Part shown: piece by piece, positions 14,111 to 54,404 of the stretch
Numbering within the stretch: position 1 is the first letter of the stretch
How the letters are laid out: each line of letters starts with the position of its first letter
Sequence record: SRR2962707_2394
Length of the DNA stretch: 56,547 nucleotides
Strand: one strand, 5' to 3'
Notes under the pieces: generated by a model
The model's database searches: none
What the model saw: only the letters and a program-made list of their open reading frames with translations
Told to the model about the DNA's origin: nothing
Position numbers and translations under genes: made by a program

Positions 14111-14366
14111 TGATTCGCTCCCGCAGCAATCGTTTTGCCATGTCGTCATCGTTGGTAAGACCTCCTATTTCGTCAAGGGCCTTGTCCAAGACCTTGCGGT
14201 CAAAGACATTTTTTCTGATCCCGGCATGGTCCCGGTAGGGAACGGGGCTGAAAATCCCGGCGTCGACTGCCTTTTGAAACGTGTTCGGGTTTGTCAAGCC
14301 TACATATTCACAGGCCTGTTCAAGCGATATACAGCGTGGCGGGATGTTGGCTGGTAATGCGCTCAC
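14055..14366 (-). CDS. Excisionase-like winged-helix protein
   Basis: PPRCISLEQACEYVGL...FDRKVLD; directly upstream of int. Confidence 0.7.
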   Translation of the reverse strand: MSALPANIPPRCISLEQACEYVGLTNPNTFQKAVDAGIFSPVPYRDHAGIRKNVFDRKVLDKALDEIGGLTNDDDMAKRLLRERINGRAKRGKAEVPYPAPQH

Positions 14367-39256: not shown

Positions 39257-39622
39257 ATGCGCTCGATCACCGAACACAAGGTTAATCCGGCCAACGACAA
39301 GCTTGAAATCATTGTTATCGATGAGCCCGGAGCTGGTGGCGCAAACCACAAGTACGAAGTTGTGTACGATGGCGGTACAGTTGGCTTCACTGTCGGCATC
39401 AATTTCCAGAACGGCCCGATCAACGAAGCCGGTGTGAACGGACTCACGCAGGAAGTTCTGCTTGCAATTGTGGCTGATCGTTTGCGCTCATTCCAATCTG
39501 GTCAATACGCATGCCGCGAGAACGCGCTTGCACTGACCAAGATCGAAGAAGCGCAGCATTGGCTGCACAGCCGCACGCTGACCCGGATGCATCGCGGCGT
39601 TGAAGGAACACACAAAGTTTAA
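39257..39622 (+). CDS. tad1: Tad1-like nucleotide-signal sponge
   Basis: GAGGANHKY, FQNGP, LLAIVADRLRSFQSG.YACRENALALTKIEEA..WL..R..R..RGVEGT matches recalled Tad1. Confidence 0.85.
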   Translation: MRSITEHKVNPANDKLEIIVIDEPGAGGANHKYEVVYDGGTVGFTVGINFQNGPINEAGVNGLTQEVLLAIVADRLRSFQSGQYACRENALALTKIEEAQHWLHSRTLTRMHRGVEGTHKV

Positions 39623-39869: not shown

Positions 39870-40448
39870 GTGGCGAAAAAGCAATACACAAAGATCCCGA
39901 AGCCAGCGGACTATAAACCCGAAACACACTTCCCCGACGACTGGAAGGTAACACACCTTCAAAACAGGCCACGTTGTCCGGCATGGTCAGGCCAGAAGGC
40001 TGCGCAGTGCGGGCAATTGGCAGGGTCCGGAACCAAGCGCAAGGACGAGGCCGGGGCGTGTTGTAGCTATCACGGCGGGGCCTCTGATGGTGCGCCGAAG
40101 GGCAACACGAATGCCGTAGACGCATCCAAACCACGCAGCAAATACATCGCGATTGAAGACATCGACGGTATCCGCGAATTGATGGGCAAGGATGTGATCG
40201 AGCAGTCCGACCTTTTATCGGCGCTGACGATGCATCGTATTCAGTTGGCTCTTGGTAATGAAACGACGAGCGCCGACGACAACGCCGCAGACAAGGTTGA
40301 TGCCAAGCTGGCCGTCATGGGAAAGACCTGGACAAGTCTGGTTAAGACCAAGATCGCGGCGCAAAACCTTCTGATGAAAACACCGGAACCGGAAGACGAA
40401 ACGCTGTCAGATGATGAACTCAAACGCCAGATTTTCGGTGACACCTGA
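39870..40448 (+). CDS. Terminase small subunit-like (HGGxSTG-type)
   Basis: C..C..CSYHGGASDGAPKGNTNA; upstream of TerL. Confidence 0.7.
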   Translation: MAKKQYTKIPKPADYKPETHFPDDWKVTHLQNRPRCPAWSGQKAAQCGQLAGSGTKRKDEAGACCSYHGGASDGAPKGNTNAVDASKPRSKYIAIEDIDGIRELMGKDVIEQSDLLSALTMHRIQLALGNETTSADDNAADKVDAKLAVMGKTWTSLVKTKIAAQNLLMKTPEPEDETLSDDELKRQIFGDT

Positions 40449-41208
40449 CCAGTTCGATAAGATGCCCCGTGAGGCGAAGCTCAGGTTCTTCAAGCTTGTA
40501 AAAGAATATCGCAAACGCGAAAGCCGCAAACGGTTCTTCCATCTGTTTCCTGATGAGACTCATGACTGGAACGGCGAAACGTTCCATGCCAGATCGCTCT
40601 ATGTCCCGCATGCTGAGTTCATGAAGGCAACAGCAGATTACATGGAAGTGGCCTTCATGGCCGGCAACAGAACCGGGAAGTCAGAAACCGGGACGTTCTG
40701 CGATGCGGTCTGGCTCACCGGGCTGTATCCCGAATGGTGGGAGGGCAGGCGGTTCGATGGTCCGGTGCGTGGCTGGGTCGCAGGTAAGACCAACGAAACG
40801 GTACGCGACATTCTCCAAGACAAGCTGCTTGGCGAGATTTCATGGCGCGGCCGACGCAAGACAGTATCGGGCACCGGGATCATTCCGGGCGAATGCATCG
40901 AATATGAAAGCGTGACATGGCGATCCGGGGTCCAGAACCTTGTCGACACGATCCGCATCAAGCATGTCAGCGGAAAGACATCGCTGCTTGGGTTCAAGTC
41001 CTATGCGCAGGGGCGAAGCGGGTTTGAAGGCACCGCACAGCATTTCGCGCATCTGGATGAAGAACCACCACAAGACATCTACAGCGAGGTCATGACCCGT
41101 CTGGCAACCACCAGCGGGGTCGGCATCTCGACCTTTACGCCACTTGATGGCCTTACCGAAGTCGCACTGGGCTTTATGCCGCAGGATATGCGGCCTGATG
41201 AGAGTTAA
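40438..41208 (+). CDS. Terminase large subunit, N-terminal ATPase half (P22 gp2-like)
   Basis: AGNRTGKS Walker A, HLDEE Walker B, TFTP motif III. Confidence 0.9.
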   Translation: MTPDQFDKMPREAKLRFFKLVKEYRKRESRKRFFHLFPDETHDWNGETFHARSLYVPHAEFMKATADYMEVAFMAGNRTGKSETGTFCDAVWLTGLYPEWWEGRRFDGPVRGWVAGKTNETVRDILQDKLLGEISWRGRRKTVSGTGIIPGECIEYESVTWRSGVQNLVDTIRIKHVSGKTSLLGFKSYAQGRSGFEGTAQHFAHLDEEPPQDIYSEVMTRLATTSGVGISTFTPLDGLTEVALGFMPQDMRPDES

Positions 41209-41638
41209 TGCATCTATCATGGGTATGAACCTTACATCTTCCGATATCGAGATGATGAAAGAGAGATCAATCCGGCCTGATGACTGGCTTCTCTATGCCG
41301 TTGTCCATGGATTGGTGGATCGCGAAACCGCTTGCCCCGACCTTGCCGAGACCTACCAGAAAGGCTGTTCGGTCTGCTCGCCACTTGCAGATCATTCTGT
41401 GCCAAAGGCAATCGCCCCGATGGGGTATGTGGAATCGGTGTGCCGCGCCCTTTGCGCCCTTGATTGCGTTGCCGATCCTGATGGTGTTGTTCTGATCAAA
41501 GGGGATTCCCAAAAGCCATACGGCTCGTTCCCATGGGACGGGATCAAGGAATGCCCGATCTGGATGCTTTACATGCCCCGCGTTAATGCGCTGCGGTCAG
41601 CCCTCAAACAATGCGGCCTTAAGGTCGTAAGCGCCTGA
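41198..41638 (+). CDS. Cys-rich hypothetical protein between the TerL halves
   Basis: 146-aa ORF overlapping both neighbours. Confidence 0.6.
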   Translation: MRVNASIMGMNLTSSDIEMMKERSIRPDDWLLYAVVHGLVDRETACPDLAETYQKGCSVCSPLADHSVPKAIAPMGYVESVCRALCALDCVADPDGVVLIKGDSQKPYGSFPWDGIKECPIWMLYMPRVNALRSALKQCGLKVVSA

Positions 41639-42381
41639 TGCCAGAGATCACACCCAGCCGCTACATGGTGATGGCCGGTTGGGATGATGTTCCGCATCTT
41701 GACGAGAAAACAAAGGCCGGTCTGATCGCATCCTATAAACCGCATGAACTTGATGCCCGGACCAAAGGCATACCAAGCCTTGGGGCAGGGGCGATCTATC
41801 CGATTGAAGAGGATGCGTTTGTTGTTGCGCCTTTCCAGATACCGGATTTCTGGCCGCGCTTCTATGCCATGGACGTTGGCTGGAACAAGACGGCGGTTCT
41901 GTGGTTTGCATGGGATCGCAGTTGTGACTGCCTCTACATCTACACCGAACATTACCGGGGCCAAGCAGAACCCAGCATTCACGCCGCTGCGGTTCGCGCG
42001 CGCGGTGAGTGGGTCAAGGGCGTTGTCGATCCGGCTGCACGCGGTCGGTCCCAGAAAGACGGCGAACAACTTATTCAGAACTATATCGATCTCGGATTGA
42101 AGCTGATCAAGGCTGATAACTCGGTCGAGGCGGGCATTGATCTTGTCATGGAGCGGCTTTCAACCGGTCGTCTCAAGGTATTTTCGACGGTGCGCAACCT
42201 GCTTGTCGAGATGCGGATATATCGCCGGGACGAGAACGGCAAGATCGTCAAGAAGAACGACCACGGCTGTGACGCGATGCGTTACGGCACGGTGTCAGGC
42301 ACGGCGGTCGCGCAAACCAAACCATTCGAAGAAAGAATTATAGTTGCCGCCCATGTGGGTGACAGCGATGCAGGATATTAA
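41638..42381 (+). CDS. Terminase large subunit, C-terminal nuclease half
   Basis: WDDVPHL, ARTKGIP, AMDVGW, NDHGCDAMRY. Confidence 0.9.
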   Translation: MPEITPSRYMVMAGWDDVPHLDEKTKAGLIASYKPHELDARTKGIPSLGAGAIYPIEEDAFVVAPFQIPDFWPRFYAMDVGWNKTAVLWFAWDRSCDCLYIYTEHYRGQAEPSIHAAAVRARGEWVKGVVDPAARGRSQKDGEQLIQNYIDLGLKLIKADNSVEAGIDLVMERLSTGRLKVFSTVRNLLVEMRIYRRDENGKIVKKNDHGCDAMRYGTVSGTAVAQTKPFEERIIVAAHVGDSDAGY

Positions 42382-42389
42382 GGGTTCAA

Positions 42390-44585
42390 ATGATGGGTGC
42401 CATGGCTGAACAGAGCTTTTACGATGAAGAAGATCGTAAGCAGTACGAAGCCGATCAGGCATCTATTGCAGAACAAAAGCGCCGGGACCGCCTGAACTCC
42501 ATTGTTCAGACCTTGCAAACCAAGGCCGATGATCAGGTCAAGAAGAAGGTCCATATCGAAGAACGCTGGCTCAATGATATGCGTCAGTTCTATGGCCGCT
42601 ACGACGAGAAGACCGAGAAAGACCTGAACGCCCCGAACAGCAGCAAAAGCAAGCTGTTCTTCAACATCACCCGGATGAAAACCAACGGCTGGGAAGCCCG
42701 CCTGACGGATATGCTGTTCCCGACCGATGACCGCAACTGGGGCATCAAGCCGACACCGGTTCCCGAGATCGATAACGCGCCAGTCCCACAGATACCAGAG
42801 GCCGCTTATCCGCAGCCGGAACAGGGTGCGGCGATGTCCGCCAAGCTTCAGATGGATGCCAAAGTTGCCGAGGCCAAGAAGCGTGCCGAGGCGATGGAAG
42901 AAGAAATTGATGACCAGTTCCGCGAGGCTGATTACTACGCCAAATGCCGCGATATGATCGGCGATGCCTGCCAGATCGGCACCGGGATCATCAAGGCGCC
43001 GGTTGTCAGTGCCAAGAATATCCGTCGCTGGGGTAAGGCCGAAGGTGGACCCGATGAAGGCGGTTATGTTCTGGCAAGCATTGATGATCCGAGCCCGGAT
43101 GCGCTTTCGGTTGATCCGTGGTCGTTCTTCCCCGATATGTCTGCATCCAGCGTGGATGATGCCGAGTTCTTCTTCGAGCGCCATCTCAGCAACAAGAAAC
43201 AGCTTCGCGACCTTGCCAAGACCAAAGGGTTCGACAAAGAGGCGATCCGTGAGCTGCTTGAAGAAGGACCGCAGGAAGGCGGGCCCGATTTTGTTGCCAA
43301 CCTGCGTGAGATTACCGGCGTCGGTGAGTTCGATAAAAGCGACAACCAGAAATATCAGGTCTGGGAATATCATGGTCCGCTGGAACCTGAAGATATCGAG
43401 ACGGTCTGTCATTGTATCGGTAAGGATGATCTGCTCGGGGATATCGAAGACCACGACATTCTTGAGGAAATCCATGTCGTCGCATGGTTCTGCCAGAACC
43501 GGCTGATCAAGTTTGGTCTGCATCTTCTTGACAGTCAGGAGCCGATCTATTCGGTTTTCAACCTTGAGAAAGACAAACGCTGCATCTTCGGGTTTGGTGT
43601 TCCTGCCCTGATGCGCGACAGCCAGAAGTCGCTTTCAGCAGCTTGGCGCATGATCCTTGATAATGCAGGGCTTTCGACAGGTCCGCAGGTTGTTATCGAC
43701 AAGGATGCGATTTATCCGGCGGATGGTAACTGGGCACTGGCACCGCGCAAGGTCTGGCTCAAGAAATCAACAGCTATCCCGATTTCCGAGGTGTTTGGCA
43801 CCTTTAGTATCGACAGCCATCAGGCCGAGCTTGCCAACATCGTTCAGATGTCACGCCAGTTTGCCGATGAAGAAACAGCACTGCCGCTGGTCGCCCAAGG
43901 CGAAAGCGGGTCACATCAGACCCAGACCGCGCAAGGCATGTCCATGCTGATGAACAGCGTCAATGTCGTGTTCCGTCGCGTGGTCAAGAACTATGATGAT
44001 GATGTCACCGTTCGCACGGTACGCCGGTTCTATGACTGGAACATGCAGTTCAATCCCCGGGAAGATATCAAGGGCGATTACAATGTTGATGCCCGTGGTT
44101 CTTCGGTTCTTCTGGTTCGCGAGATGCAAGCCCAGAACCTGCTTGGCATGATGAATATGTTTGGTGCCCATCCGGTCTTTGGCCCGATGACCAAGCATGC
44201 TGATCTGTATCGCAAGGCCGTCCAGGCGCACAGCATTGCTGCAGACGAGATCGTTCTGACCGATCAGGAAATTGCGAAGGTGAAGAAAGATCAGGCAGAA
44301 GCCGAGGCCAATGGTGGCAGCGATCCGGCCATGGAACTTGAGATTGCCAAGATGAATACGCAGATTGAAGTCGCCCAGATCGATCAACAGACCAAGATTG
44401 AAGTCGCCCGACTTAATCACGAATCCGCAATGATGAAACTTGCCGCCGATCAGCAGACTACGGTTGAAAAGATCAAGGCCCAGCTTGCCGGGAAGCAGAT
44501 GGAAATCGATAGCAAGGAACGCACTTTTGCCGCAGAAGCAGCGATTTCCAGCCAGATTGGTCCATCTGGTGGCGGGTCGTTTTAG
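42390..44585 (+). CDS. Portal protein (podovirus type)
   Basis: 731 aa after TerL; GTGIIK, VDPWSFFPD, GFGVP; C-terminal coiled coil. Confidence 0.85.
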   Translation: MMGAMAEQSFYDEEDRKQYEADQASIAEQKRRDRLNSIVQTLQTKADDQVKKKVHIEERWLNDMRQFYGRYDEKTEKDLNAPNSSKSKLFFNITRMKTNGWEARLTDMLFPTDDRNWGIKPTPVPEIDNAPVPQIPEAAYPQPEQGAAMSAKLQMDAKVAEAKKRAEAMEEEIDDQFREADYYAKCRDMIGDACQIGTGIIKAPVVSAKNIRRWGKAEGGPDEGGYVLASIDDPSPDALSVDPWSFFPDMSASSVDDAEFFFERHLSNKKQLRDLAKTKGFDKEAIRELLEEGPQEGGPDFVANLREITGVGEFDKSDNQKYQVWEYHGPLEPEDIETVCHCIGKDDLLGDIEDHDILEEIHVVAWFCQNRLIKFGLHLLDSQEPIYSVFNLEKDKRCIFGFGVPALMRDSQKSLSAAWRMILDNAGLSTGPQVVIDKDAIYPADGNWALAPRKVWLKKSTAIPISEVFGTFSIDSHQAELANIVQMSRQFADEETALPLVAQGESGSHQTQTAQGMSMLMNSVNVVFRRVVKNYDDDVTVRTVRRFYDWNMQFNPREDIKGDYNVDARGSSVLLVREMQAQNLLGMMNMFGAHPVFGPMTKHADLYRKAVQAHSIAADEIVLTDQEIAKVKKDQAEAEANGGSDPAMELEIAKMNTQIEVAQIDQQTKIEVARLNHESAMMKLAADQQTTVEKIKAQLAGKQMEIDSKERTFAAEAAISSQIGPSGGGSF

Positions 44586-44659
44586 ATTTTTGGCGATCAA
44601 TTGGAATGGACAAGTCAACTGGAGACATTCATCATTCCGGCAAAATGGAGGGCTGTGAG

Positions 44660-45193
44660 ATGATGAAAAGATTGTTTGGGGTTGTCGGTGTTCTGGTTCT
44701 GGTCGGGTGTCAGACGGTTGCGGAAGAGCAGCCGCTTACCTATCGCGCATCGGCTGTTGATGCAGTTGTCGCAACGATTACGGATGTTTGTATCAAACAT
44801 ATTGATGATCCGGTCGGGATGGCTGAGGCGGCACGAAATATAGGAATTGCCGAAACTAAACGCGAAACAGTGCGTTACGGTGATGGCTGGGTTCCCTTTA
44901 AAACCCAGACGCTAAACAACAGCACGGTCGCGCATTATTTCGGCGATGGTTCGCATTGCTCAATCTCTTGGCAAGCAGGGGCTGTTCCTGATGAACTTAT
45001 GCTTCGCGGGATAAACGCAGAGCTGATCAACGGGAAATACAAAGGCAGCCTCGTCGGATACGTGATCAAACCGCGCTATGGGTTGTCGCTTGTTAAGAAC
45101 GCAAATGGTGCGGCGGACATTGTGACGATCATGAACGCCGAGCGATACGCTGAGTTCGCTAAAGCCGTTGGTGCGACAGGAGCGGGAGGGTGA
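44660..45193 (+). CDS. Lipoprotein (moron)
   Basis: MMKRLFGVVGVLVLVG-C lipobox; GGAG RBS. Confidence 0.72.
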   Translation: MMKRLFGVVGVLVLVGCQTVAEEQPLTYRASAVDAVVATITDVCIKHIDDPVGMAEAARNIGIAETKRETVRYGDGWVPFKTQTLNNSTVAHYFGDGSHCSISWQAGAVPDELMLRGINAELINGKYKGSLVGYVIKPRYGLSLVKNANGAADIVTIMNAERYAEFAKAVGATGAGG

Positions 45194-45828
45194 TGATTAG
45201 GGCACTCAGATCGCTTGCGCTAGTTTCCGTGTTTTTGACCGCGCATACCACAACTTCAGCAGAAGAAATGTGCGCCTCCAAATATGCGGCGTATAGCGAC
45301 CGGATGCCATGCTATGCAGATACAATTAGTTGGGTGGAATTCTCACACCAAGGGGACCATGAAAACGTCTTTGATCGGTACAAACACGATTTCGAGCGGC
45401 TTACCCGAATGAGATTAGGCAACGATCTACCCATCTTTCAGCATGAGACCGTGTCGCGCCAAGATGCTTATCGTGATACGCCATTCCATTCAGAAAGCCT
45501 GAAAAGAAAAGTGGAAGTTTTATGCAAAATTTGGTGGACCGGTAAAGAATACCCAATTGCCCAGCACTTAAAATGCGGTATGCGTGGATACGGGATCTAT
45601 GCCGGGTTTCCCGTCAACGTTGATTCTGCGGTGCTTGGCTATAGTAATTTTGACGATTTGATTACTCAGACGGATAACATGATCAGAAGTGCGGTTTCCG
45701 ATCTCTCGATTGGGTTCTTCATTGAAAGAGACAGAGACATCCTGAGGGAAGACCAGTGCACGGCTATTGACGGAAATTTACTTTGCGCACCATCAATTGG
45801 AGAGTCTTCTACGCGACCGGTACAATAG
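45190..45828 (+). CDS. Exported hypothetical protein
   Basis: Signal peptide-like N-terminus; six Cys. Confidence 0.65.
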   Translation: MMIRALRSLALVSVFLTAHTTTSAEEMCASKYAAYSDRMPCYADTISWVEFSHQGDHENVFDRYKHDFERLTRMRLGNDLPIFQHETVSRQDAYRDTPFHSESLKRKVEVLCKIWWTGKEYPIAQHLKCGMRGYGIYAGFPVNVDSAVLGYSNFDDLITQTDNMIRSAVSDLSIGFFIERDRDILREDQCTAIDGNLLCAPSIGESSTRPVQ

Positions 45829-45944
45829 TGACGTTCGTAAAGCTGACGTTTCTTGAGAGATCGGGTTTTCTGGATGTTCCGCTGAACTTGGTGTGGTCAT
45901 CAATATGGCCACTGTATTGGGTGGCGGTAGCGAATTAAGGCGGC

Positions 45945-46346
45945 TCACAGGTCGCCTTTTTCTTTGTCTTCTTTGTGCCCCAGGCCGGAATAACGGTCCC
46001 TGATGGCCTTGAAGTGTTTTTTGGTGCTTTCGCTGGCTGTGGGATGGTCGGCAACGATGGCGGCCATCAATGCCAGAGTGGAGTATTGCATGACGGGCGG
46101 GAGGGCGCGGTAAGTATTTAGGAGGTCTATCTCGTCTTGAGGAGTGTGAAGCGGAGCGTCCCAACCAAGGAGGTACGCCGGTTCAACAAGCAGAACGGGA
46201 GCAAGCTTTTCCACCCATTCCGTGGAAAGAGTTGTCTTCTCGTTTTCAATTCGGTGAATTGTTTGAGGGGTCGTTCCGACAGCCTCAGCGACATCGGATA
46301 GCTTAAGGCCAAGTCGTTTGCGGGCTTCTTTAATTCGTGACTGCAT
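45945..46346 (-). CDS. XRE family repressor (secondary immunity region)
   Basis: LSDVAEAVGTTPQTIHRIE HTH. Confidence 0.85.
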   Translation of the reverse strand: MQSRIKEARKRLGLKLSDVAEAVGTTPQTIHRIENEKTTLSTEWVEKLAPVLLVEPAYLLGWDAPLHTPQDEIDLLNTYRALPPVMQYSTLALMAAIVADHPTASESTKKHFKAIRDRYSGLGHKEDKEKGDL

Positions 46347-46467
46347 TTACGTTTAACTTAAAAAATGTGTTGCGTTTAAGCTGTGAGTAAATTAAATTTT
46401 ACCTACGGCATGATTTGCTGTGAATAATTAACACAACATGTAAACAGAATCCAATAGGAGACGTTAG

Positions 46468-46632
46468 GTGCAAACTGAACAGATGAAAAACATCACTGTC
46501 CGCGCCGACCGTGATTTCTCTGACAAGGTCGATGATTGGCGTCGTATGCAGAAGGATATTCCTTCTCGCGCTGACGCAATGCGTCAACTCGTAGAACGCG
46601 GCCTCGAAGCAGAGCAATCCACCCAAAAGTAA
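46468..46632 (+). CDS. Ribbon-helix-helix (Arc-like) protein, 54 aa
   Basis: AGGAG RBS, GTG start; KNITVRAD...KVDDWRR...PSRADAMRQLVERGL; not in ORF track. Confidence 0.75.
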   Translation: MQTEQMKNITVRADRDFSDKVDDWRRMQKDIPSRADAMRQLVERGLEAEQSTQK

Positions 46633-46696
46633 ACCCCCGGTGTTGGCGCACCGAGGGTTTGAGATATCAAAATCCACTAGCAAAAGGACTTGTGAC

Positions 46697-47479
46697 ATGC
46701 AGGAGCATACACAAAATAATGCTGATTTGTCCAGCCAATCGTTGGTGACGCTGGATTACAACGGGTCCGTGATCCGTATCGACGACGAAAAACTTAACCT
46801 TACCGATATGTGGCGGGCTTCTGGCGGGCACGATTCAAAGCGCCCGGCAGATTGGGCTCGTAAAGATGGGGCGGCGTTTATCGACGCTGTTGGGATGTCT
46901 TTAAATATGCCTGTGGAGCATATTATCGAGGCAACTCGCGGAAAGAACGGCGTAACAATGGCCCATTGGCAGATCGGGCTTGCATATGCCAAGTACCTGT
47001 CGCCGGAATTCCACATGTGGTGCAACACGGTCGTTCGTGACCGTATGGAGAACAAACCGGCCCAACAGGACCTGTCGGACCCGGCGACACTTCGCCACCT
47101 ACTGTTGGAGCATACCGAGCGCGAAATCGAGTTGCTGGCCAAGATTGACGAAGCAAAGCCAAAGGTTGAAGGTTTTGATCGGATTGCACATGCCGATGGT
47201 TCGATGTGCATTACTGATGCGGCCAAAACCTTGCAGGTGCGTCCGAAAGACCTGTTCACATGGCTTCGGTGCAATGGCTGGATATACAAACGGGCCGGTA
47301 ACTCGCACGACGTTGCCTATCAGGACAAACTGAAAAGCGGTGTTTTGGAGCACAAAACAAAAACAGTCTATCGCGGCGATGGCACAGACAAGATCACGGA
47401 ACAGGTTCGCGTCACGCCGAAGGGCTTGACCAAGCTGGCACTGGTCTTCGGTGTTTCGTCGCAGGAGGCAGCGGAATGA
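46697..47479 (+). CDS. ant: Phage antirepressor (KilA-N + KilAC)
   Basis: NLTDMWRA..RPADW..YAKYLSPEF; KPKVEGFDRI..ITDAAKTL..VTPKGL. Confidence 0.9.
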   Translation: MQEHTQNNADLSSQSLVTLDYNGSVIRIDDEKLNLTDMWRASGGHDSKRPADWARKDGAAFIDAVGMSLNMPVEHIIEATRGKNGVTMAHWQIGLAYAKYLSPEFHMWCNTVVRDRMENKPAQQDLSDPATLRHLLLEHTEREIELLAKIDEAKPKVEGFDRIAHADGSMCITDAAKTLQVRPKDLFTWLRCNGWIYKRAGNSHDVAYQDKLKSGVLEHKTKTVYRGDGTDKITEQVRVTPKGLTKLALVFGVSSQEAAE

Positions 47480-47718
47480 ATATTCGAGAAGAGGTTATGG
47501 CTCATTTCGTTGAAATTGCTGAGAACGCCGAAAAGTCTGGCTTAGGTGGGCTTGACGTGCTTCGCAAACAATTTCCCGATGTTCCTGTGTCTATTTTGGC
47601 GGAGGCTGCAACCGAAGCGTGGATGAACGCAGATGAAGCATGGTGGCAGAAAGTCGAGAAAACCATCGACGACGAGATCATTAAAAAGGCGTTAGAAGGC
47701 AAGGGAGAACCGGCATGA
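47476..47718 (+). CDS. Hypothetical protein
   Basis: ATGA coupling; GGAGG RBS. Confidence 0.65.
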   Translation: MNIREEVMAHFVEIAENAEKSGLGGLDVLRKQFPDVPVSILAEAATEAWMNADEAWWQKVEKTIDDEIIKKALEGKGEPA

Positions 47719-48065
47719 AGTTCACCGATCTTTCCTTTGTCAGCCGTGGCGAACGCAACACCAACTGGGATGTGCCGCCGACTGATGACTATGTTGCTGC
47801 ATGCGCCCGTGGCGATGAAATGGCCGTGGAGTACATGCAGTATCTTCGGCTCAATCCCGGCGCAAAAGGCAGCAATGTTCTTGGTGCTATCATCGGGGAC
47901 GCACGACCAGAAGATAATCGAGGCTATCTGGTTGGCTTCCTTGGAACGGTGGAGCGCATGACGTGCGAGGCGCTTGCGTACCGTGATCCGGTACAGGATT
48001 TGATTAATACGCGGGCGCTCTACGCTCGTGCAGAAGCAGAACAGGATATCGCGCTCGTCGCCTGA
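47715..48065 (+). CDS. Hypothetical protein
   Basis: ATGA coupling; GGAG RBS. Confidence 0.65.
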   Translation: MKFTDLSFVSRGERNTNWDVPPTDDYVAACARGDEMAVEYMQYLRLNPGAKGSNVLGAIIGDARPEDNRGYLVGFLGTVERMTCEALAYRDPVQDLINTRALYARAEAEQDIALVA

Positions 48066-48092
48066 TACCTGCCCACAAACACACAGACACAA

Positions 48093-48123
48093 GGCCGCTC
48101 CCAACCGGGGCGGCTTTTTCTTT
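48093..48123 (+). terminator. Terminator of the antirepressor operon
   Basis: GGCCGCTCC-caacc-GGGGCGGCT then TTTTCTTT. Confidence 0.75.
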
Positions 48124-48143: not shown

Positions 48144-48581
48144 ATGGAAATCGGCACCCCCGGCGATGTCAAAACAGGGCTTTACCTTGCTGTTGCACTG
48201 GCGACCGCATCAGAGCGGCACCGTGACATGACCGTGATGGATATCGAGCGGTGCTTCTTTCCGCCTGTTGTGCATAGCCAGTGCCTTGTCGCCATCGAAA
48301 ACCAGATGCCGGTCGGGTTTATGTCTTGGGCCTTCTTGTCCGAAGAAATTGCAACAGGCTTTGCCAACCGAACCCGCATCCTGCAGGCCGATGAATGGGC
48401 AAGCGGTGATCAGGTCTGGATCATCGATCTGATCGCGCCGTTCGGTCATTGCAAGGAATTCGTTCGTTTTGCCCGTGATGAGCAGTTCGCGGGACAGGTT
48501 GTTTTCGCATCCCGTCAGCGCCCCGGTGGCTATCGGGATGTGGCGCGGTTCCTTGGGAAAGGTGTTTGTCATGGGAAATGA
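48144..48581 (+). CDS. HlyC/RtxC-family toxin-activating lysine acyltransferase
   Basis: SxxH (SERH), PVGFMSWA, EWASGDQVWIIDLIAPFG. Confidence 0.88.
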   Translation: MEIGTPGDVKTGLYLAVALATASERHRDMTVMDIERCFFPPVVHSQCLVAIENQMPVGFMSWAFLSEEIATGFANRTRILQADEWASGDQVWIIDLIAPFGHCKEFVRFARDEQFAGQVVFASRQRPGGYRDVARFLGKGVCHGK

Positions 48582-49497
48582 TAGCGGCGGATCAAGCAGC
48601 GGAAGCGACCCGACCGGACACGGTGCCCTTGCCGACAGCATGAAGGGCACTGGCAACACAAACCTGTCGGGCAGCGTTTCAGATCGTGGCGGCGGAGGTT
48701 ACGCCAATAACGGCGGTCAGGGCGGCGAAGGCAACAGTTCCAACCGTGACAACAACGGTGTTGGTGGTCGGGGCTCTTTGGGAGACTTGCGGAAAGCCGA
48801 CAACAGAGCGGTTGCCAGCCTAGGCGGCAAGCTTCGCGATGTGAACCGCGCATCATTGTCTTTCAATGAAGAAGATCCCGGCTTGCTTGATCGTGGTGCC
48901 GCAAACTTCAAAGACTTCCTGGGTGCAGGCGCACCCGGGGGATTTGCAAAATCTGGCGCGGCCAATTCAATTATCAGCACCGGTCTTAGTTTGATTAATC
49001 CTGCCCTTGGCGCTGTTGCTGGGGTGGCTCATAGCAAGTATGCGCAACCACCGGGAACAAACAACAACATCGGCCTTCTCAGTGCTGCAGGCGGCGCAAT
49101 CCCCGGTGTGGGCGGCCTTGTTAGCCGTGGCGTCAACCTCGTTGACCGTATCGTTGATCTGGATGACCAAGACGCAGCAAACAACCCAAGCTCTGCGGTC
49201 GCAACACGCGGCGACTTGATGGGGCCGCCAGATCCGGATGCATCCTATCCGGGCGGAGGCAACAGCAACGGCGGGCGCGGCCTGCTGTCCAATGTTCCAG
49301 CCCCGACAACCGGCACAGCAACCGCATCAGGCGGTAGCAGCACCCCGTCTAACTCAAGCAATGTCGGTCTTGTCAGCAACGCAGCCGGTGAGGGTCTTCC
49401 AACCCCCGGTGAGCGGTTCCGCAGTGATCGGTATATCGGTGGCCGCTGGGCGCGCAACCCGTCGTCAGGGCAGCTTGAATGGGTCTCCGGGACATGA
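48571..49497 (+). CDS. Gly/Ser/Asn-rich protein with hydrophobic core (possible internal virion protein)
   Basis: Overlaps hlyC stop; low-complexity ends; hydrophobic IISTGLSLINPALGAVAGVA. Confidence 0.7.
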   Translation: MGNDSGGSSSGSDPTGHGALADSMKGTGNTNLSGSVSDRGGGGYANNGGQGGEGNSSNRDNNGVGGRGSLGDLRKADNRAVASLGGKLRDVNRASLSFNEEDPGLLDRGAANFKDFLGAGAPGGFAKSGAANSIISTGLSLINPALGAVAGVAHSKYAQPPGTNNNIGLLSAAGGAIPGVGGLVSRGVNLVDRIVDLDDQDAANNPSSAVATRGDLMGPPDPDASYPGGGNSNGGRGLLSNVPAPTTGTATASGGSSTPSNSSNVGLVSNAAGEGLPTPGERFRSDRYIGGRWARNPSSGQLEWVSGT

Positions 49498-49709
49498 CGG
49501 CGATTGAAACGAACTCGACCGCATGGCTTGCGATTGCCAAACACATCGAAAAACGGATTGCAGAACTGCAGGGCGAACTTGAGGCGCAGGGTCTTGATCC
49601 CCGTAAGACGGACTTCATTCGCGGGCAGATCAGTGCTTTGCGCGACATCAAAAGCTTACCCCGTGCCGGTGATCAACCCGATATCGAGACACCGGCCCAT
49701 TACACCTAA
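49494..49709 (+). CDS. Small head-region protein
   Basis: ATGA coupling; W...L...FIRGQISALR pattern. Confidence 0.7.
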   Translation: MTAIETNSTAWLAIAKHIEKRIAELQGELEAQGLDPRKTDFIRGQISALRDIKSLPRAGDQPDIETPAHYT

Positions 49710-49775: not shown

Positions 49776-50831
49776 ATGACCACCAAGACTGAAGGCGAAG
49801 ATATCAATACCGGTGATGATGTCACCACTGTTTCTGATGACGCCGAATATGAAGCCGCTTTCGGGGAGTTTGCAGACCCTGAAGCCGCTTCGGATGATGG
49901 CGATATCGATGCAGGCGATGATGACGATGCCGCTCCGGCAGGGGCCGCTTCTGATGATTTGGGGGAAGATGACGACGCCGACCCTGAGCCTGATGCTGAT
50001 CCGAGCAACAGCGGTGATGATGATGGCAACGGCGATCCCGGTGGCGATGGCGACGGTTCTGATCCCTCGGACCAAGACGGTTCAGACATCTGGGCCAACG
50101 CACCGCCTGAACTGCGATCCGCCTATGAGGCCGAACGCAAGAAGTCGGAGCAGGCCCTAAAAAGCCAGACCGGCCGCATCTCCGCTTATCAGCGGCAGGT
50201 CAATGAACTGCAAGCACAGATTAACGCCGCATCCCGCAAGGGCACTGCCGCAAACCAGAAAGACAAGGCCGCATCAGGTGATGCCGCCCCTGATCAGCTC
50301 GGTGATGCCGACGGGTTTAAAACTCTGCGTGAGGATTACCCGGAAATCGCCCAGCCGATTGAAAACATGTTTAACCGGATGCAGGCCGATATCAGCCGCC
50401 GCGACCAGACCATTGAAAACCTGATGAACAAAGACCGTCAGGTTCATATCGATGAACAGGAAGCCGCACTGCTTGAGGCGCACCCGGACTGGATGGATGT
50501 AATCCAATCGGAAGCATTCGGGAACTGGGTCACATCGGCCCCGGCCCATATTCAGCCGATCCTTGAGCAGAACGCCAATGACATTGTTGATGCCGCCTCG
50601 GCCGCTGATGCGATTGAATTGTTCAAGCTGCGCACCGGTTACAAACCATCCCAAACCCCTGATCCTGCCTCGCAGCCGAAACCGGCCGGGGCTCCCCGAA
50701 ATAGCGGCAAGCGATCACGTCAGCTTGAATCCGGCACGTCGGCCAAATCAGGTCGGGGTGTTGGTGGAACTGGCGGGCCAGCTAAGGATAATTACGAAGC
50801 GGCCTTTGATTACTATGTCCGCAAGGCATAA
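49776..50831 (+). CDS. Scaffolding protein
   Basis: Very acidic N-terminus, coiled coil; just before the capsid gene. Confidence 0.75.
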   Translation: MTTKTEGEDINTGDDVTTVSDDAEYEAAFGEFADPEAASDDGDIDAGDDDDAAPAGAASDDLGEDDDADPEPDADPSNSGDDDGNGDPGGDGDGSDPSDQDGSDIWANAPPELRSAYEAERKKSEQALKSQTGRISAYQRQVNELQAQINAASRKGTAANQKDKAASGDAAPDQLGDADGFKTLREDYPEIAQPIENMFNRMQADISRRDQTIENLMNKDRQVHIDEQEAALLEAHPDWMDVIQSEAFGNWVTSAPAHIQPILEQNANDIVDAASAADAIELFKLRTGYKPSQTPDPASQPKPAGAPRNSGKRSRQLESGTSAKSGRGVGGTGGPAKDNYEAAFDYYVRKA

Positions 50832-50845
50832 CAGGAAACTGAAAG

Positions 50846-51850
50846 ATGTCTCAGCTTACCACTTACGGCGATGTCAACCAGCGTACCGCTGCTTGGGCCG
50901 CCACCACGATGCTTTCCCATGCGGAACCGGTTGTTATTCTTGCCAAGTTCGGCATGACTAAACCAATGCCGAAAAACAAGGCGGATACCGTCAAGTTCCG
51001 TCGTCCGGTTCCGTTTTCTGCGGCAACCACGCCGCTTGTTGAGGGTGTCACCCCGACTGCTCAGAAAATGAGCTATGAAGATGTCACCGCCCAGCTCAAG
51101 CAGTATGGCCGTCCGACTGAAATCACGGATGTTGTCATGGATCTGGCCGAAGATCCAGTCCTGTCCGATGCCTCCATGCTGGCAGGCGAACAGGCCGGTC
51201 TGACGCTTGAAATGATCACCTATGGCGTTCTTAAGGGTGGTTCCAACATCCATTACGCCAACGGTGCAGACCGCACCGCGGTTAACACCCCGATCAGCCT
51301 GTCCAAACAGCGTGCCGTTACCCGGTCGTTGAAGGCACAGAAAGCGGGCAAGCTGACCCGCATGCTGGATGGTTCGCCGAAATACGGCACCAAAGCGATT
51401 GAGGCCTGCTATGTCGCGGTTGCACATACCGACCTTGAAAGCGATATCCGCGCCATGGCCGGTTTCGTGCCGGTTGCCAAATACGGTAGCCGTCAGATGC
51501 TGTGCCCGGAAGAAATCGGTTCGGTCGAAGACGTGCGTTACGTCCTGTCGCCGGAACTTGAACCGTTTGCCAGTGCTGGTGGTGCCTATGATGCAGGCAG
51601 CGAGGACATGGTATCGGCAAACGACACCAACGCCGATGTCTATCCGGTTCTTTACATCGGCAAGGAAGCCTTTGGCACCGTGCCGCTGAAAGGCTCGAAC
51701 GCCATCACCCCGATGGTGGTCAACGCAAAGCCGTCTGCTGCCGATCCAATGGCGCAGCGCGGTTATGTGAGCTGGAAGGCTTACTTCACCGCTGTCATCC
51801 TGAACGAAAACTGGATGGCGCGTCTCGAAGTTGCTGTTACCGCTCTGTAA
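50846..51850 (+). CDS. Major capsid protein, N4-gp56 family
   Basis: MPKNKADTVKFRR, LVEGVTP, LKQYG, EIGSVE, DPMAQRG..SWKAY. Confidence 0.92.
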   Translation: MSQLTTYGDVNQRTAAWAATTMLSHAEPVVILAKFGMTKPMPKNKADTVKFRRPVPFSAATTPLVEGVTPTAQKMSYEDVTAQLKQYGRPTEITDVVMDLAEDPVLSDASMLAGEQAGLTLEMITYGVLKGGSNIHYANGADRTAVNTPISLSKQRAVTRSLKAQKAGKLTRMLDGSPKYGTKAIEACYVAVAHTDLESDIRAMAGFVPVAKYGSRQMLCPEEIGSVEDVRYVLSPELEPFASAGGAYDAGSEDMVSANDTNADVYPVLYIGKEAFGTVPLKGSNAITPMVVNAKPSAADPMAQRGYVSWKAYFTAVILNENWMARLEVAVTAL

Positions 51851-53118: not shown

Positions 53119-53694
53119 ATGAGTACGAAAATGAAAACCGTTCTTCTTGAAGAAGCCGATCTCACCCAGCTCAAGGAATTTGCAACCAACTCGCTTGGTC
53201 TTGAGTTCCCGCGCACCGCGAACACAGTGCATATGCTTTCCATGATCCGGCAGGTCCACACCAAAGACACGATTGAAGTTGCGGATGACGGCGCAGATGA
53301 AGGCGTTTCTCAGGGTGCAGAAGCAGGCAGCACCCCACCTGTTCAGCGGTCTGTCCAAAAAACCGGCAAGGAAATCTCGCCAGTCAAGTCGGCAGGTGAT
53401 CCGAAGGTTACGATCCTTATTCCGAATACCGAAAAGGTCGGTGGTGAACGCGATGTCTTTGTCAGCGTCAACGGCAAAGGCATGTTGCTTCCGCGTGGCG
53501 AGGATATCACGATCCCGTACCGGTACTACGCAGCGCTTCGCAACGCCGAGAAGTCCGAGTTTTACCAGAAGCCCGATGATTCGAATTACGAAATCAAGGA
53601 ACGCAAGGTTCCGTCCTATGCATTCGAAGTCAAATCGATGCCGCCTAAGAGCGAGATCGATGCATGGCTTCAGAGCATGCAGGGGCAGGCGTAA
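53119..53694 (+). CDS. Head-region hypothetical protein
   Basis: DVFVSVNGKGMLLPRGE. Confidence 0.7.
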   Translation: MSTKMKTVLLEEADLTQLKEFATNSLGLEFPRTANTVHMLSMIRQVHTKDTIEVADDGADEGVSQGAEAGSTPPVQRSVQKTGKEISPVKSAGDPKVTILIPNTEKVGGERDVFVSVNGKGMLLPRGEDITIPYRYYAALRNAEKSEFYQKPDDSNYEIKERKVPSYAFEVKSMPPKSEIDAWLQSMQGQA

Positions 53695-53699
53695 CAATC

Positions 53700-54404
53700 A
53701 TGGCGACATTCCTTGAACTCTGTCAGAAAACGGCACGGGAAAGCGGCACCGTTTCCGGGGTGTCGCCAAGCACAACTGCTTCTCAAAGCGGGCGACTGGC
53801 CAAAGTTGTCAGCTGGGTGGCCGAAGCATGGCTGCGCATTCAGAACCATCGTGATGACTGGCTCTGGATGCGCGGCGAGTTTTCCAAGATCACGATTGCG
53901 GGCACCAATGCCTATACAGGTGCGTCATGGAGCCTGACCGATCTGGCGCGGTTTGTGGTTGATCAGGATGCTGTCGGGTACTTGCCGGTCACGCTTTACA
54001 AAACCGCAACCGGTGTCGCCGATGAAGGGCCGATTGTCTATATCCCGTACCCGGCCTATCGCACCCGATACGGACGCGGTGCGCAGACCAACAATCGCCC
54101 TGTCGAATATTCGATTGGCCCATCTGGCGAATTCCTTCTCGGCCCTATTCCAGATGATGATTACACCGTGCGCGGTGAATATTTCAGGACACCGCAGCGG
54201 TTTACGCAAGACGCGGATGTCCCAACCGGTTTGCCCGCAAGGTTCCATGAAATCATTGCATGGCGGGCGCTGATGCTTCTGGCCGAGCATGACGAGGCAA
54301 TCACTTCGATCACGACTGCGGCCGGCAACTATTCCGAAATTCTCCGCCAGCTTGAACGGGACCAGCTTCCCGTTGTCACGCTTGGCGGCGGTCCTCTTGC
54401 GTAG
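53700..54404 (+). CDS. Tail adaptor (tubular protein A-like)
   Basis: MATFLEL, DWLW, LGPIPDDDY, PARFHEII; gene order. Confidence 0.72.
   Translation: MATFLELCQKTARESGTVSGVSPSTTASQSGRLAKVVSWVAEAWLRIQNHRDDWLWMRGEFSKITIAGTNAYTGASWSLTDLARFVVDQDAVGYLPVTLYKTATGVADEGPIVYIPYPAYRTRYGRGAQTNNRPVEYSIGPSGEFLLGPIPDDDYTVRGEYFRTPQRFTQDADVPTGLPARFHEIIAWRALMLLAEHDEAITSITTAAGNYSEILRQLERDQLPVVTLGGGPLA

Follow-up and report, generated by a model that had tools for sequence, protein, structure and literature searches.

To our knowledge, bacterial toxins and CDI effectors are the only proteins for which lipidation by acyltransferases of the HlyC/TAAT type is known, which raises the question of what such an enzyme would acylate when it is encoded among the head genes of a phage. 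This is the situation in a prophage of a marine Thalassospira bacterium, contained in the stretch of 56,547 nucleotides from record SRR2962707_2394 that we analysed as a whole (hereafter, the window). The original prediction, made from the sequence, held that the enzyme acylates the Gly-rich product of the next gene, giving a lipidated virion protein for ejection or membrane penetration.

Judged by its sequence, the ORF of 145 amino acids at positions 48144-48581 (plus strand) is a true acyltransferase of the HlyC/TAAT family. It matches PF02794 (HlyC) in Pfam with an E value of 4.5e-27 and 94.9 bits (cut-off, 25), the match spanning residues 17-128 of the ORF and positions 6-117 of the 127 in the profile, and it also matches phrog_20210 (E 2.4e-22; PHROG) and ApxC (4whn; E 4.9e-11). 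The profile search thus agrees with the original assignment, which was based on an SxxH motif and the aspartate of a WIID motif; both are present, and S23-x-x-H26 and W92-I-I-D95 align to the S-x-x-H and W-F-I-D of ApxC. In a gap-free alignment H26 and D95 fall on residues 35 and 104 of chain 4whn_A, which would be His24 and Asp93 of ApxC only if the chain carries a tag of 11 residues; we take Asp93 to be the catalytic aspartate of ApxC. H26 and D95, together with S23, are the candidate catalytic dyad of the enzyme. A His/Asp dyad is named as catalytic for TAATs in the available text of PMC8510554, being His37/Asp107 in CdiC. Among the TAATs that we aligned, the histidine is kept in 17 of 18, and position 95 is Asp in 13 and Glu in the other five. 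Likewise, the dyad is kept in six homologues of the enzyme with 50–96% identity, and those with 50–77% identity retain S23, H26 and the block WIIDLIAPFGH.

The pair of genes is located between the portal and the scaffold, an interval that is the usual location of genes for head-internal minor proteins. The portal protein, of the SU10 type (42390-44585, plus strand; PF23899, E 2.8e-13), shows 34% identity with that of the Pseudoalteromonas phage vB_Pun_Y3, the nearest cultured relative by its capsid. Between it and the acyltransferase lies an accessory block (44606-48065) that includes a lipobox ORF, a signal-peptide ORF, a divergent HTH gene and a KilA-N/ANT gene, has its own terminators, and has a GC content of 0.47–0.53 in four of its six genes, lower than that of the pair. 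The block ends with a terminator-like hairpin on the plus strand (48091-48117; stem of 11 bp and a T-run), 27 nt ahead of the acyltransferase gene. We found no promoter-like site between the hairpin and this gene, and the scan gave no strong terminator-like site between 48117 and the scaffold gene, only two weak ones of six pairs at 48838-48854, inside the Gly-rich ORF, and 49812-49826, inside the scaffold ORF.

The gene for the Gly-rich protein (48571-49497, plus strand) starts at an ATG at 48571, preceded by the Shine-Dalgarno-like stretch GGAAAGG, and overlaps by 11 nt the end of the acyltransferase gene, whose stop is at 48581, as had been claimed. At its 3' end it is overlapped by 19 nt by an ORF of 76 amino acids (49479-49709, plus strand) that begins with Met-Gly and has no family match in Pfam, PHROG or NCBIfam. 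This ORF is followed, on the same strand, by a scaffold-like protein (49776-50831; phrog_13678, E 1.1e-15), which in tblastn matches the vB_Pun_Y3 gene between portal and capsid (E 5.5e-13), and by the major capsid protein (50846-51850; phrog_1357, E 1.6e-63; PF25209), 49% identical to that of vB_Pun_Y3. The original description of a chain leading from the Gly-rich gene through a small ORF towards scaffold and capsid is therefore accurate, and translational coupling of the acyltransferase to the Gly-rich protein is supported. The GC content of the acyltransferase, Gly-rich and 76-amino acid genes (0.55–0.60) is similar to that of the structural genes (0.54–0.57), and, judged by its interval, strand, overlaps, GC and the lack of a strong terminator-like site before the scaffold gene, the Gly-rich gene belongs to the structural operon and is transcribed together with late genes. 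In vB_Pun_Y3 the portal gene is directly followed by the scaffold gene, indicating that the pair is dispensable for this type of head. The large terminase of the prophage is split into three ORFs that occupy two frames, and the terminase of vB_Pun_Y3 has no match in the window.

The Gly-rich gene codes for a protein of 308 amino acids that is rich in Gly (20.1%), Ser (12.3%), Ala (10.7%) and Asn (9.1%), poor in Lys (1.9%) and devoid of Cys, and that starts with MGNDSGGSSSG. Two alternative in-frame starts (ATG at 48538 and TTG at 48469) would lengthen this N-terminus, and a leader of such kind is called in three of the five homologues. The protein is predicted to be disordered (mean pLDDT of the predicted structure, 38.6), and the central hydrophobic stretch originally described corresponds to two moderately hydrophobic, Gly/Ala-rich segments at about residues 134-152 and 167-185 (best 19-residue Kyte-Doolittle windows, 1.58 from residue 134 and 1.51 from 167). 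Its homologues vary along the body and conserve a C-terminal stretch of ca. 70 residues. We found no match in Pfam, PHROG, NCBIfam or PDB, and the best score in the ESM Atlas was 0.80, with nothing at 0.9; hence, these five resources show no homology to known ejection or internal virion families. A profile of the family retrieved five matches from 1.84 billion representatives, three of them members of the family and the other two with E values of 5e-6, and pattern scans of genome, viral and metagenome contigs did not find it. Prediction of a complex of the enzyme with its neighbour, which is disordered, scored 0.01, against a mark of 0.34.

A conventional toxin could be an obvious substrate for an enzyme of this family, and the original prediction had stated that the window lacks genes for RTX toxins and type I secretion. 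This holds for the 65 ORFs of the window that we scanned, among which Pfam identified no family of RTX proteins, type I secretion or two-partner secretion and we found no export gene (T1SS, TpsB or peptidase-ABC exporter), nor an hlyCABD-type operon with an adjacent RTX protoxin and type I secretion. An RTX substrate elsewhere in the genome was looked for in the genomes of relatives. The HlyC family was absent from all 37 genomes of the host's family, while it was detected in both of the genomes known to carry it that served as positive control, and also from four close Thalassospira genomes; an RTX substrate in the host is thus unlikely. A search for the RTX N-terminal domain (PF02382), run without a positive control, gave no match in four related host genomes. 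By eye, and among the matches listed, the ten bacterial HlyC loci from genome contigs resemble classical RTX or two-partner secretion settings. The genome-contig scan also contained loci resembling CdiC-CdiA (L047, L048 and L052).

The pairing of the two genes, which the original prediction proposed to survey, is conserved. Homologues of enzyme and Gly-rich protein have longest contigs of equal size (10735, 42691, 12958 and 27699) for four of the five Gly-rich homologues, equal size being only a proxy for co-location. Beyond this family, genes for HlyC-like proteins occur at 41 IMG/VR loci, and in all the 40 with readable downstream DNA the gene is abutted (-8 to +2 nt) by an ORF of 408–980 amino acids, although these viral loci are not independent and represent 24 distinct N-termini from few lineages. 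Residues G, A, S, T, N, Q and D make up 50–71% of these neighbours, 30 of which begin with MGG, usually as MGGGGGD, while the other ten have a leader ending in F, Y or L that is followed by a Gly/Asp-rich run. This start is specific, because 24 of the 228 distinct ORFs that reach 100 amino acids in the HlyC loci begin with MGG, and all 24 are HlyC neighbours. At locus L041, the enzyme is abutted not by a low-complexity protein but by a J-like tail-tip protein, which still starts with MGG, and Tyr replaces the catalytic His. Among seven representative loci, a lysozyme/endolysin PHROG is directly behind the neighbour in five, tail-fibre or tail proteins are upstream in four, and a downstream protein matches phrog_4287 (DNA ejection protein) in three, in two of which it has ca. 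770 amino acids and also matches phrog_6121. For instance, the order in phage CRP-235 is gp30 (HlyC), gp29 and gp28 (lysozyme).

The pairs of marine podophages (CRP-235, CRP-738, CRP-3, CRP-212 and those from IMG/VR) resemble that of the window in that an acyltransferase is followed by an abutting low-complexity protein, which is poor in Lys, devoid of Cys, has a Gly/Asp-rich motif after the initial Met or a short hydrophobic leader, and conserves a C-terminal domain; the window pair shows the same combination, with its 11-nt overlap, few lysines and Gly-rich start. They differ in that they follow the tail fibres and precede lysozyme and large ejection-type proteins, whereas the window pair lies between portal and scaffold. 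Additionally, neither tblastn of phage records nor pattern scans revealed sequence homology between the neighbours, and the enzymes form separate clades: viral HlyC enzymes make up at least three groups besides that of the window, whose clade falls outside the main clade of marine viruses, within an unresolved polytomy that also includes bacterial TAATs. The relation between the two kinds of pair would therefore be one of analogy, drawn from position, composition and N-terminal motif. GenBank names the marine genes only as 'putative toxin-activating lysine-acyltransferase', 'putative acyltransferase' or 'hypothetical protein'. The original prediction mentioned hlyC-like genes in marine podophages, and these can be traced to the GenBank annotation of CRP-235 and, in a preprint (10.1101/2019.12.14.876532), to a figure legend where the label hlyC stands without comment. 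The HlyC-labelled pelagiphages of that HTVC023P-type comparison figure were absent from our tblastn matches in phage records. Apart from this label and the GenBank names, our full-text searches found no account of a lipidated virion or ejection protein of a tailed phage.

The enzyme can change while the neighbour remains. The homologues of CRP-235 gp29, which are gp28 of CRP-738, gp27 of CRP-3 and gp26 of CRP-212 (E 6e-19 to 6e-8), are each behind a protein of ca. 150 amino acids that is not an HlyC by sequence (hhalign probability 0.2; no sequence match in PDB). Fold prediction places this protein among the GNAT acyltransferases (pLDDT 87.6), and GCN5, NatD, a ribosomal-protein-alanine N-acetyltransferase and Naa50 head the list of its 130 matches in PDB with E ≤ 0.001. 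We surveyed 25 of 35 such loci, leaving out near-duplicates and those with a short downstream flank (L057, L060, L061, L062, L065, L071, L072, L080, L086 and L087), and in all 25 the putative GNAT gene abuts a protein with a leader ending in ..SG-x-I-x-F-(G/K)-GG. In HMO-2011-type roseophages, then, the slot is occupied by either type of enzyme and the neighbour family stays the same. Altogether, the pairing of enzyme and neighbour looks functional rather than accidental.

Which residue might be acylated is a separate matter. The original prediction pointed to K87, in the context LGGK, and to an N-terminal Met-Gly, and both occur in the window protein, where K87 is the only one of six lysines preceded by Gly (SLGGK). 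Nevertheless, K87 is exclusive to this protein among the six family members compared, being lost already in a homologue with 80% identity, and their alignment contains no invariant lysine and no conserved internal Lys or Gly-Lys acceptor of the type found in RTX substrates. We therefore reject K87 as the acylation site. Met-Gly is not conserved in the family either, because three of the five homologues have a leader with Asp aligned to the Met of the window protein. A conserved lysine in the marine neighbour family was also rejected, as the best column has Lys in nine of 18 sequences; two of the marine proteins contain only one Lys, and the positions of these lysines are not homologous. Thus, neither neighbour family has an invariant lysine, and what is conserved is the N-terminal poly-Gly, which follows either the Met itself or a short leader. 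This region is more likely than K87 to be the acceptor, and the acylated group could be an alpha-amine, either that of Gly2 once the Met is removed or that of a Gly freed by cleavage of a leader. All characterised TAATs acylate lysine, which, with a Gly-rich family that has no invariant one, counts against a lipidation pair. We know of no TAAT shown to acylate an alpha-amine.

We favour, with a probability of roughly 55%, that the two genes are a phage-encoded protein-lipidation pair acting on the Gly-rich partner, which would be ejected. The original interpretation of a lipidated neighbour thus survives in its TAAT with a dyad, the coupling and recurrence of the pair, and the lack of RTX genes, and fails in its acceptor lysine. 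Beyond the family assignment of the enzyme, this reading derives from gene context, and acyl transfer, acyl donor, virion packaging and membrane role would all follow from it by inference. Against it count also the dispensability of the pair for this type of head, its position beside an accessory block and the polytomy of the enzyme with bacterial TAATs. Late in infection, the TAAT enzyme would use acyl-ACP of the host as donor and transfer its fatty acyl chain to an amine of the disordered Gly-rich protein encoded by the overlapping gene, which might be docked in the procapsid through its conserved C-terminal ca. 70 residues. Upon infection, the unfolded, lipidated chain would exit through the tail, and the acyl chain together with the Gly/Ala-rich hydrophobic segments may assist entry into the host envelope and so aid DNA delivery. 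A more specific proposal, possible if rather unlikely, is that a viral acyltransferase of the GNAT superfamily (a TAAT here and a classical GNAT in sister phages) acylates the alpha-amine of an N-terminal Gly in a disordered internal protein that is ejected into the host envelope. This Gly would become exposed when Met is removed, in proteins that start with MGG, or when a leader is cleaved at F|GGGG.

The pair might instead be an accessory (moron) module akin to a toxin or bacteriocin, whose lipidated, membrane-active product would not be part of the virion and would be released by the lysogen against competitors or serve for exclusion. This is what would be expected if the enzyme acts as the characterised TAATs, since their substrates in the available text of PMC8510554 are all toxins or effectors destined for other cells, and it would fit the absence of the pair from vB_Pun_Y3, the adjoining accessory block with its own terminators, the hairpin ahead of the pair, the two hydrophobic segments and the polytomy of the enzyme with bacterial TAATs. 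We consider it unlikely, because the scanned ORFs of the window include none of the exporters mentioned above, and the pair has no promoter-like site of its own after the hairpin, no strong terminator-like site before the scaffold gene, translational chaining to the next ORF and the GC content of the structural genes; moreover, the analogous pairs are within tail and ejection modules of marine, apparently lytic phages.

It is quite unlikely that the enzyme acylates something else, such as the portal, scaffold, capsid, 76-amino acid, tail or a host protein, with the Gly-rich neighbour being just a syntenic structural protein. Although the neighbour has no conserved lysine and the L041 enzyme abuts a tail-tip protein, the same kind of neighbour abuts all 40 HlyC and all 25 GNAT loci, its family is constant while the enzyme type changes, and the N-terminal poly-Gly, its most conserved feature outside the C-terminus, occurs on no other ORF there and is shared, as an MGG start, by the L041 neighbour. 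Finally, we consider it very improbable that the enzyme is a relic that is decaying or has no catalytic activity, perhaps binding the disordered neighbour in the manner of a chaperone, and that no lipid is transferred. The His to Tyr change at L041 and the split large terminase, which may mean prophage decay, would be compatible with this, but the ORF is of full length with its 94.9 bits to the family model, the dyad positions (His in 17/18; Asp or Glu in 18/18) are kept across TAATs, and homologues as distant as 50% identity retain S23, H26 and the WIIDLIAPFGH block.

Compared with HlyC, CyaC or ApxC and their RTX protoxins, the lipidation pair that we favour shares the enzyme family, its size and the His/Asp dyad, a gene adjacent to that of the presumed substrate, and a Gly-rich substrate with a hydrophobic region that looks membrane-active. 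It differs in that no RTX protein with nonapeptide repeats, no genes for type I secretion and no N-terminal RTX domain accompany it, and in that the partner is a disordered protein of 308 amino acids from a phage head operon with no conserved Gly-Lys. A precedent for our proposal is the class IV CdiC-CdiA system, in which, according to the available text of PMC8510554, a TAAT (CdiC) attaches a lipid to the receptor-binding domain of CdiA, which is non-RTX and largely unstructured, the lipid promotes binding to the envelope of the target cell, and the acylated Lys is not strictly invariant. CdiA is, in contrast, a giant two-partner secretion protein with a defined acceptor, Lys1467 (PMC8510554), whereas the window partner is small, phage-encoded, has no TpsB, and belongs with neighbours whose conserved feature is an N-terminal poly-Gly.

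Eukaryotic viruses offer an analogy that is functional only. Penetration proteins such as VP4 of picornaviruses, mu1 of reovirus and VP2 of polyomavirus are N-myristoylated by N-myristoyltransferase, an enzyme of GNAT fold; they would share with our case a Met-Gly start, an acyltransferase of the GNAT superfamily and a small internal virion protein that is externalised at entry and acts on a membrane. In those viruses, the enzyme is that of the host and uses acyl-CoA, whereas here it would be encoded by the virus and of the acyl-ACP-dependent TAAT type.

The recurrence of the pairing in many marine phages suggests that some phages lipidate a protein that they inject into the host. If so, the substrates of TAATs would extend to small disordered proteins, possibly including N-terminal amines, and two widespread 'hypothetical' genes of an abundant group of marine phages would gain a function. 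Should the alpha-amine proposal be true, this would be the first TAAT acting on an alpha-amine, the myristoylated penetration proteins of eukaryotic viruses would have a counterpart in viruses of bacteria, and N-terminal lipidation would be widespread among the HMO-2011-type marine phages, which are abundant. If the pairing works as its context suggests, it would provide a handle on how the ejection proteins of podophages enter the host envelope.

The HlyC gene (48144-48581) encodes a 145-aa toxin-activating acyltransferase (TAAT) that matches PF02794 with 94.9 bits (cut-off 25) and the RTX-type TAAT ApxC with an E value of 4.9e-11. Its S23, H26 and D95 align with the ApxC motifs, confirming the SxxH and WIID signatures of the original prediction; PMC8510554 names the same His/Asp dyad for TAATs. 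The Gly-rich gene (48571-49497) and a 76-aa ORF (49479-49709) follow, linked by successive overlaps of 11 and 19 nt, and all three have a GC content of 0.55-0.60, like the structural genes; a terminator scan found no strong terminator-like site ahead of the scaffold gene. The Gly-rich neighbour (308 aa; 20% Gly, 1.9% Lys) shows every feature initially described; it has a good Shine-Dalgarno-like stretch at its start, a Met-Gly N-terminus, two hydrophobic Gly/Ala-rich windows and a single Gly-Lys (K87). It has no family match in Pfam, PHROG, NCBIfam or PDB, and its AlphaFold2 model has a mean pLDDT of 38.6, exceeding 60 only in a small C-terminal hairpin, which predicts an essentially disordered protein. 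The original observation is real.

The pair belongs to a prophage extending from an integrase (12947-14149) up to the window end. The first 12.8 kb are chromosomal (TetR, AraC, EamA, adenosine deaminase and a GGDEF protein, among others), and Thalassospira lucentensis has an adenosine deaminase with 99% identity to the one encoded here, which places the host in this genus of marine alphaproteobacteria. The integrase adjoins a PAS-GGDEF gene (11090-12781). The window lacks tRNA genes, which rules out a tRNA in this stretch as the attachment site. Early genes, including those for RecT, methylases, a CI-like S24 repressor and RusA, precede the terminase and an SU10-type portal (42390-44585). The large terminase is split across three ORFs in two frames (40411-42381): a Terminase_6N ATPase part (40411-41208; phrog_31467), a middle ORF with no match (41144-41638) and a Terminase_6C nuclease part (41638-42381). 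The split may reflect a frameshift or gene decay, insertion of an element, or a terminase that is naturally in pieces. Upstream, a 121-aa ORF (39257-39622) weakly resembles the Acb2/Tad1 hairpin domain (E 1.9e-4; 22 bits, under the 27-bit cut-off) and may be a candidate anti-defence sponge. After the pair come the scaffold (49776-50831), an N4-gp56-type capsid (50846-51850) and an SU10-type adaptor (53664-54404).

Portal and HlyC gene are separated by an accessory block (44606-48065). Of its six genes, four have a GC content of 0.47-0.53, below that of the structural genes. It includes an ORF with a lipoprotein-like signal (..VLVLVGC; 44606-45193), another with a signal-peptide-like N-terminus (45190-45828), a divergent HTH_3 gene on the minus strand (45945-46346) and a KilA-N/ANT antirepressor (46640-47479). 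One terminator-like hairpin lies at 45937-45958, and a strong one (48091-48117) closes the block.

The Gly-rich family is very small: searches returned five homologues in a set of 5.8 billion clustered proteins, and three representatives at E < 1e-10 among 1.84 billion; the enzyme clade has six further members with 50-96% identity. Using the size of the longest contig as a proxy for co-location, four of the five Gly-rich homologues match an enzyme homologue (10735, 42691, 12958 and 27699), and in the fifth case, from ENA, the sizes differ (3429 vs 3380). The Gly-rich protein diverges much faster than the enzyme (80% vs 96% identity, and 42% vs 77%), its conservation being concentrated in the final ca. 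70 residues (GLLS...GLPTPGERFRSDRYLGGRWARNP.SGQLEWV).

The strongest evidence for pairing beyond chance came from a wider survey of phage HlyC homologues. Among 50,697 GenBank phage records, the only match was Roseobacter phage CRP-235, in which the HlyC-like gp30 is separated by 1 nt from gp29, a low-complexity protein of 491 aa with the N-terminus MGGGGGDTTNV, itself followed by a lysozyme. IMG/VR contigs contain 41 loci encoding an HlyC-like protein, which are not independent (24 distinct N-termini); on the tree, their enzymes form one large marine clade, the pair L002/L004 and the long-branched L041. Wherever the DNA 3' of the enzyme gene can be read (40 loci), an ORF 408-980 aa long begins at -8 to +2 nt, with G/A/S/T/N/Q/D making up 50-71% of its residues. 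Thirty of these neighbours start with MGG, mostly MGGGGGDT.NVTNTGLGDDQY., and the other ten have a leader of 20-35 residues, ending in F/Y/L, and immediately after it a Gly/Asp-rich run. A control count over the same loci gave 228 distinct ORFs of 100 aa or longer; an MGG start occurs in 24, every one of them an HlyC neighbour.

A PHROG scan of 48 proteins flanking seven representative loci found tail-fibre or tail proteins upstream of the pair in four, a lysozyme/endolysin immediately 3' of the neighbour in five and, further downstream, a 'DNA ejection protein' (phrog_4287) in three, in two of them a ca. 770-aa protein also matching phrog_6121. By these matches, the marine pair is placed in a tail/ejection-type module. 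In L041 (306-3667), a highly divergent HlyC-like gene in which Tyr replaces the catalytic His overlaps by 1 nt the gene of a 980-aa J-like tail-tip protein (phrog_31), which also starts with MGG (MGGVVEKAKK). The window adaptor and the adaptor-position gene of a marine HlyC-pair contig (L023:1728-2417) both match phrog_10775, so the two phage groups share part of their tail architecture.

Homologues of CRP-235 gp29 occur in the HMO-2011-type roseophages CRP-738, CRP-3 and CRP-212, in each case 0-3 nt 3' of a gene for a ca. 150-aa protein with no HlyC signal (no Pfam match; hhalign probability 0.2), which occupies the HlyC slot of CRP-235. This family (L053:1823-2278, L054:1336-1800, L055:1406-1855 and 35 IMG/VR relatives, L056-L090) is predicted to fold as a GNAT acyltransferase: a model from a 10-sequence alignment (pLDDT 87.6) retrieved 130 PDB chains with Foldseek at E <= 0.001, and all the matches listed were GNAT-superfamily folds, the best being GCN5, the N-terminal acetyltransferases NatD and Naa50, and ribosomal-protein-alanine N-acetyltransferase. 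At the 25 GNAT loci examined, the abutting protein always carries a leader (e.g. ..RYLNPRASGMIVF-GGGGSSGPS) ending in ..SG-x-I-x-F-(G/K)-GG. Since the neighbours are homologous, two alternative acyltransferase types serve the same protein family within one phage group, a swap that is hard to explain unless the conserved function is modification of the neighbour.

The acceptor originally proposed, K87 in LGGK, did not survive comparison: it is lost already in a homologue at 80% identity, and the window family has no invariant Lys. The marine MGG proteins are strongly Lys-depleted (0.2-2% in most), and no column of their alignment has Lys in more than 9 of 18 sequences. Two of these proteins hold a single Lys each, one aligned with Arg in most others and Ser in the second single-Lys protein, and the other mostly with Gln, indicating that these lysines are not homologous. 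What is conserved is an N-terminal poly-Gly/Asp motif, after the initiator Met or after a leader; two marine variants have GGKK or GGSKK instead of the Gly run. The window family conforms to this: the window protein starts MGNDSGGSSSG, and relatives have ..RAVF-DNDSGGGGG, ..RIAF-DGDDGG and ..RIAL-DGDGGG. The N-terminal segment may therefore be both recognition and acceptor site, and this poly-Gly region should replace K87 as the proposed acceptor. The acylated atom would be the alpha-amine of the N-terminal Gly, freed by leader cleavage or Met removal; methionine aminopeptidase acts on proteins with Gly at position 2. To our knowledge, characterised TAATs are lysine-specific.

As first noted, the window contains no RTX or type I secretion families, nor TPS families. 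An RTX substrate elsewhere in the genome was sought in relatives: the HlyC family is absent from four close Thalassospira genomes and from 37 genomes of the host's family (it was detected in both genomes known to carry it), and the RTX N-terminal domain gave no hit in the four Thalassospira genomes, in a search without positive control. Among the matches listed, bacterial HlyC relatives in genome contigs appear, by eye, in the classical setting, beside giant Gly/Asp-rich proteins or as TpsB-HlyC-giant protein. Two bacterial contigs with identical flanks (L050 and L051; Hwanghaeella sp. and a gammaproteobacterial MAG) have a 138-aa HlyC-like gene amid IS-type transposase ORFs and no giant neighbour.

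In all, the best-supported reading, with a probability of about 0.55, is that the enzyme acylates its neighbour to give a lipidated ejection or membrane-penetrating virion protein. A lipidated accessory toxin is a live rival, because in Pseudoalteromonas phage vB_Pun_Y3, the nearest cultured phage by capsid (49% identity), nothing lies between portal and scaffold, because the pair adjoins the accessory block, and because its enzyme clade falls outside the marine viral clade, grouping with bacterial TAATs in a polytomy that the tree leaves unresolved. The closest precedent is CdiC, which lipidates the unstructured receptor-binding domain of the contact-dependent inhibition effector CdiA (PMC8510554). 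Full-text searches of the literature turned up no study of what HlyC genes do in phages; the only phage mentions they brought up were a figure-legend abbreviation in a genome comparison of pelagiphages (preprint 10.1101/2019.12.14.876532) and the CRP-235 isolation table of PMC9038755. That legend and CRP-235 gp30 agree with the original statement that hlyC-like genes without a known substrate have been noted in some marine podophages. Beyond the original prediction, pairs of an acyltransferase and a poly-Gly protein recur in the ejection modules of marine podophages, where TAAT and GNAT enzymes alternate in the acyltransferase slot.
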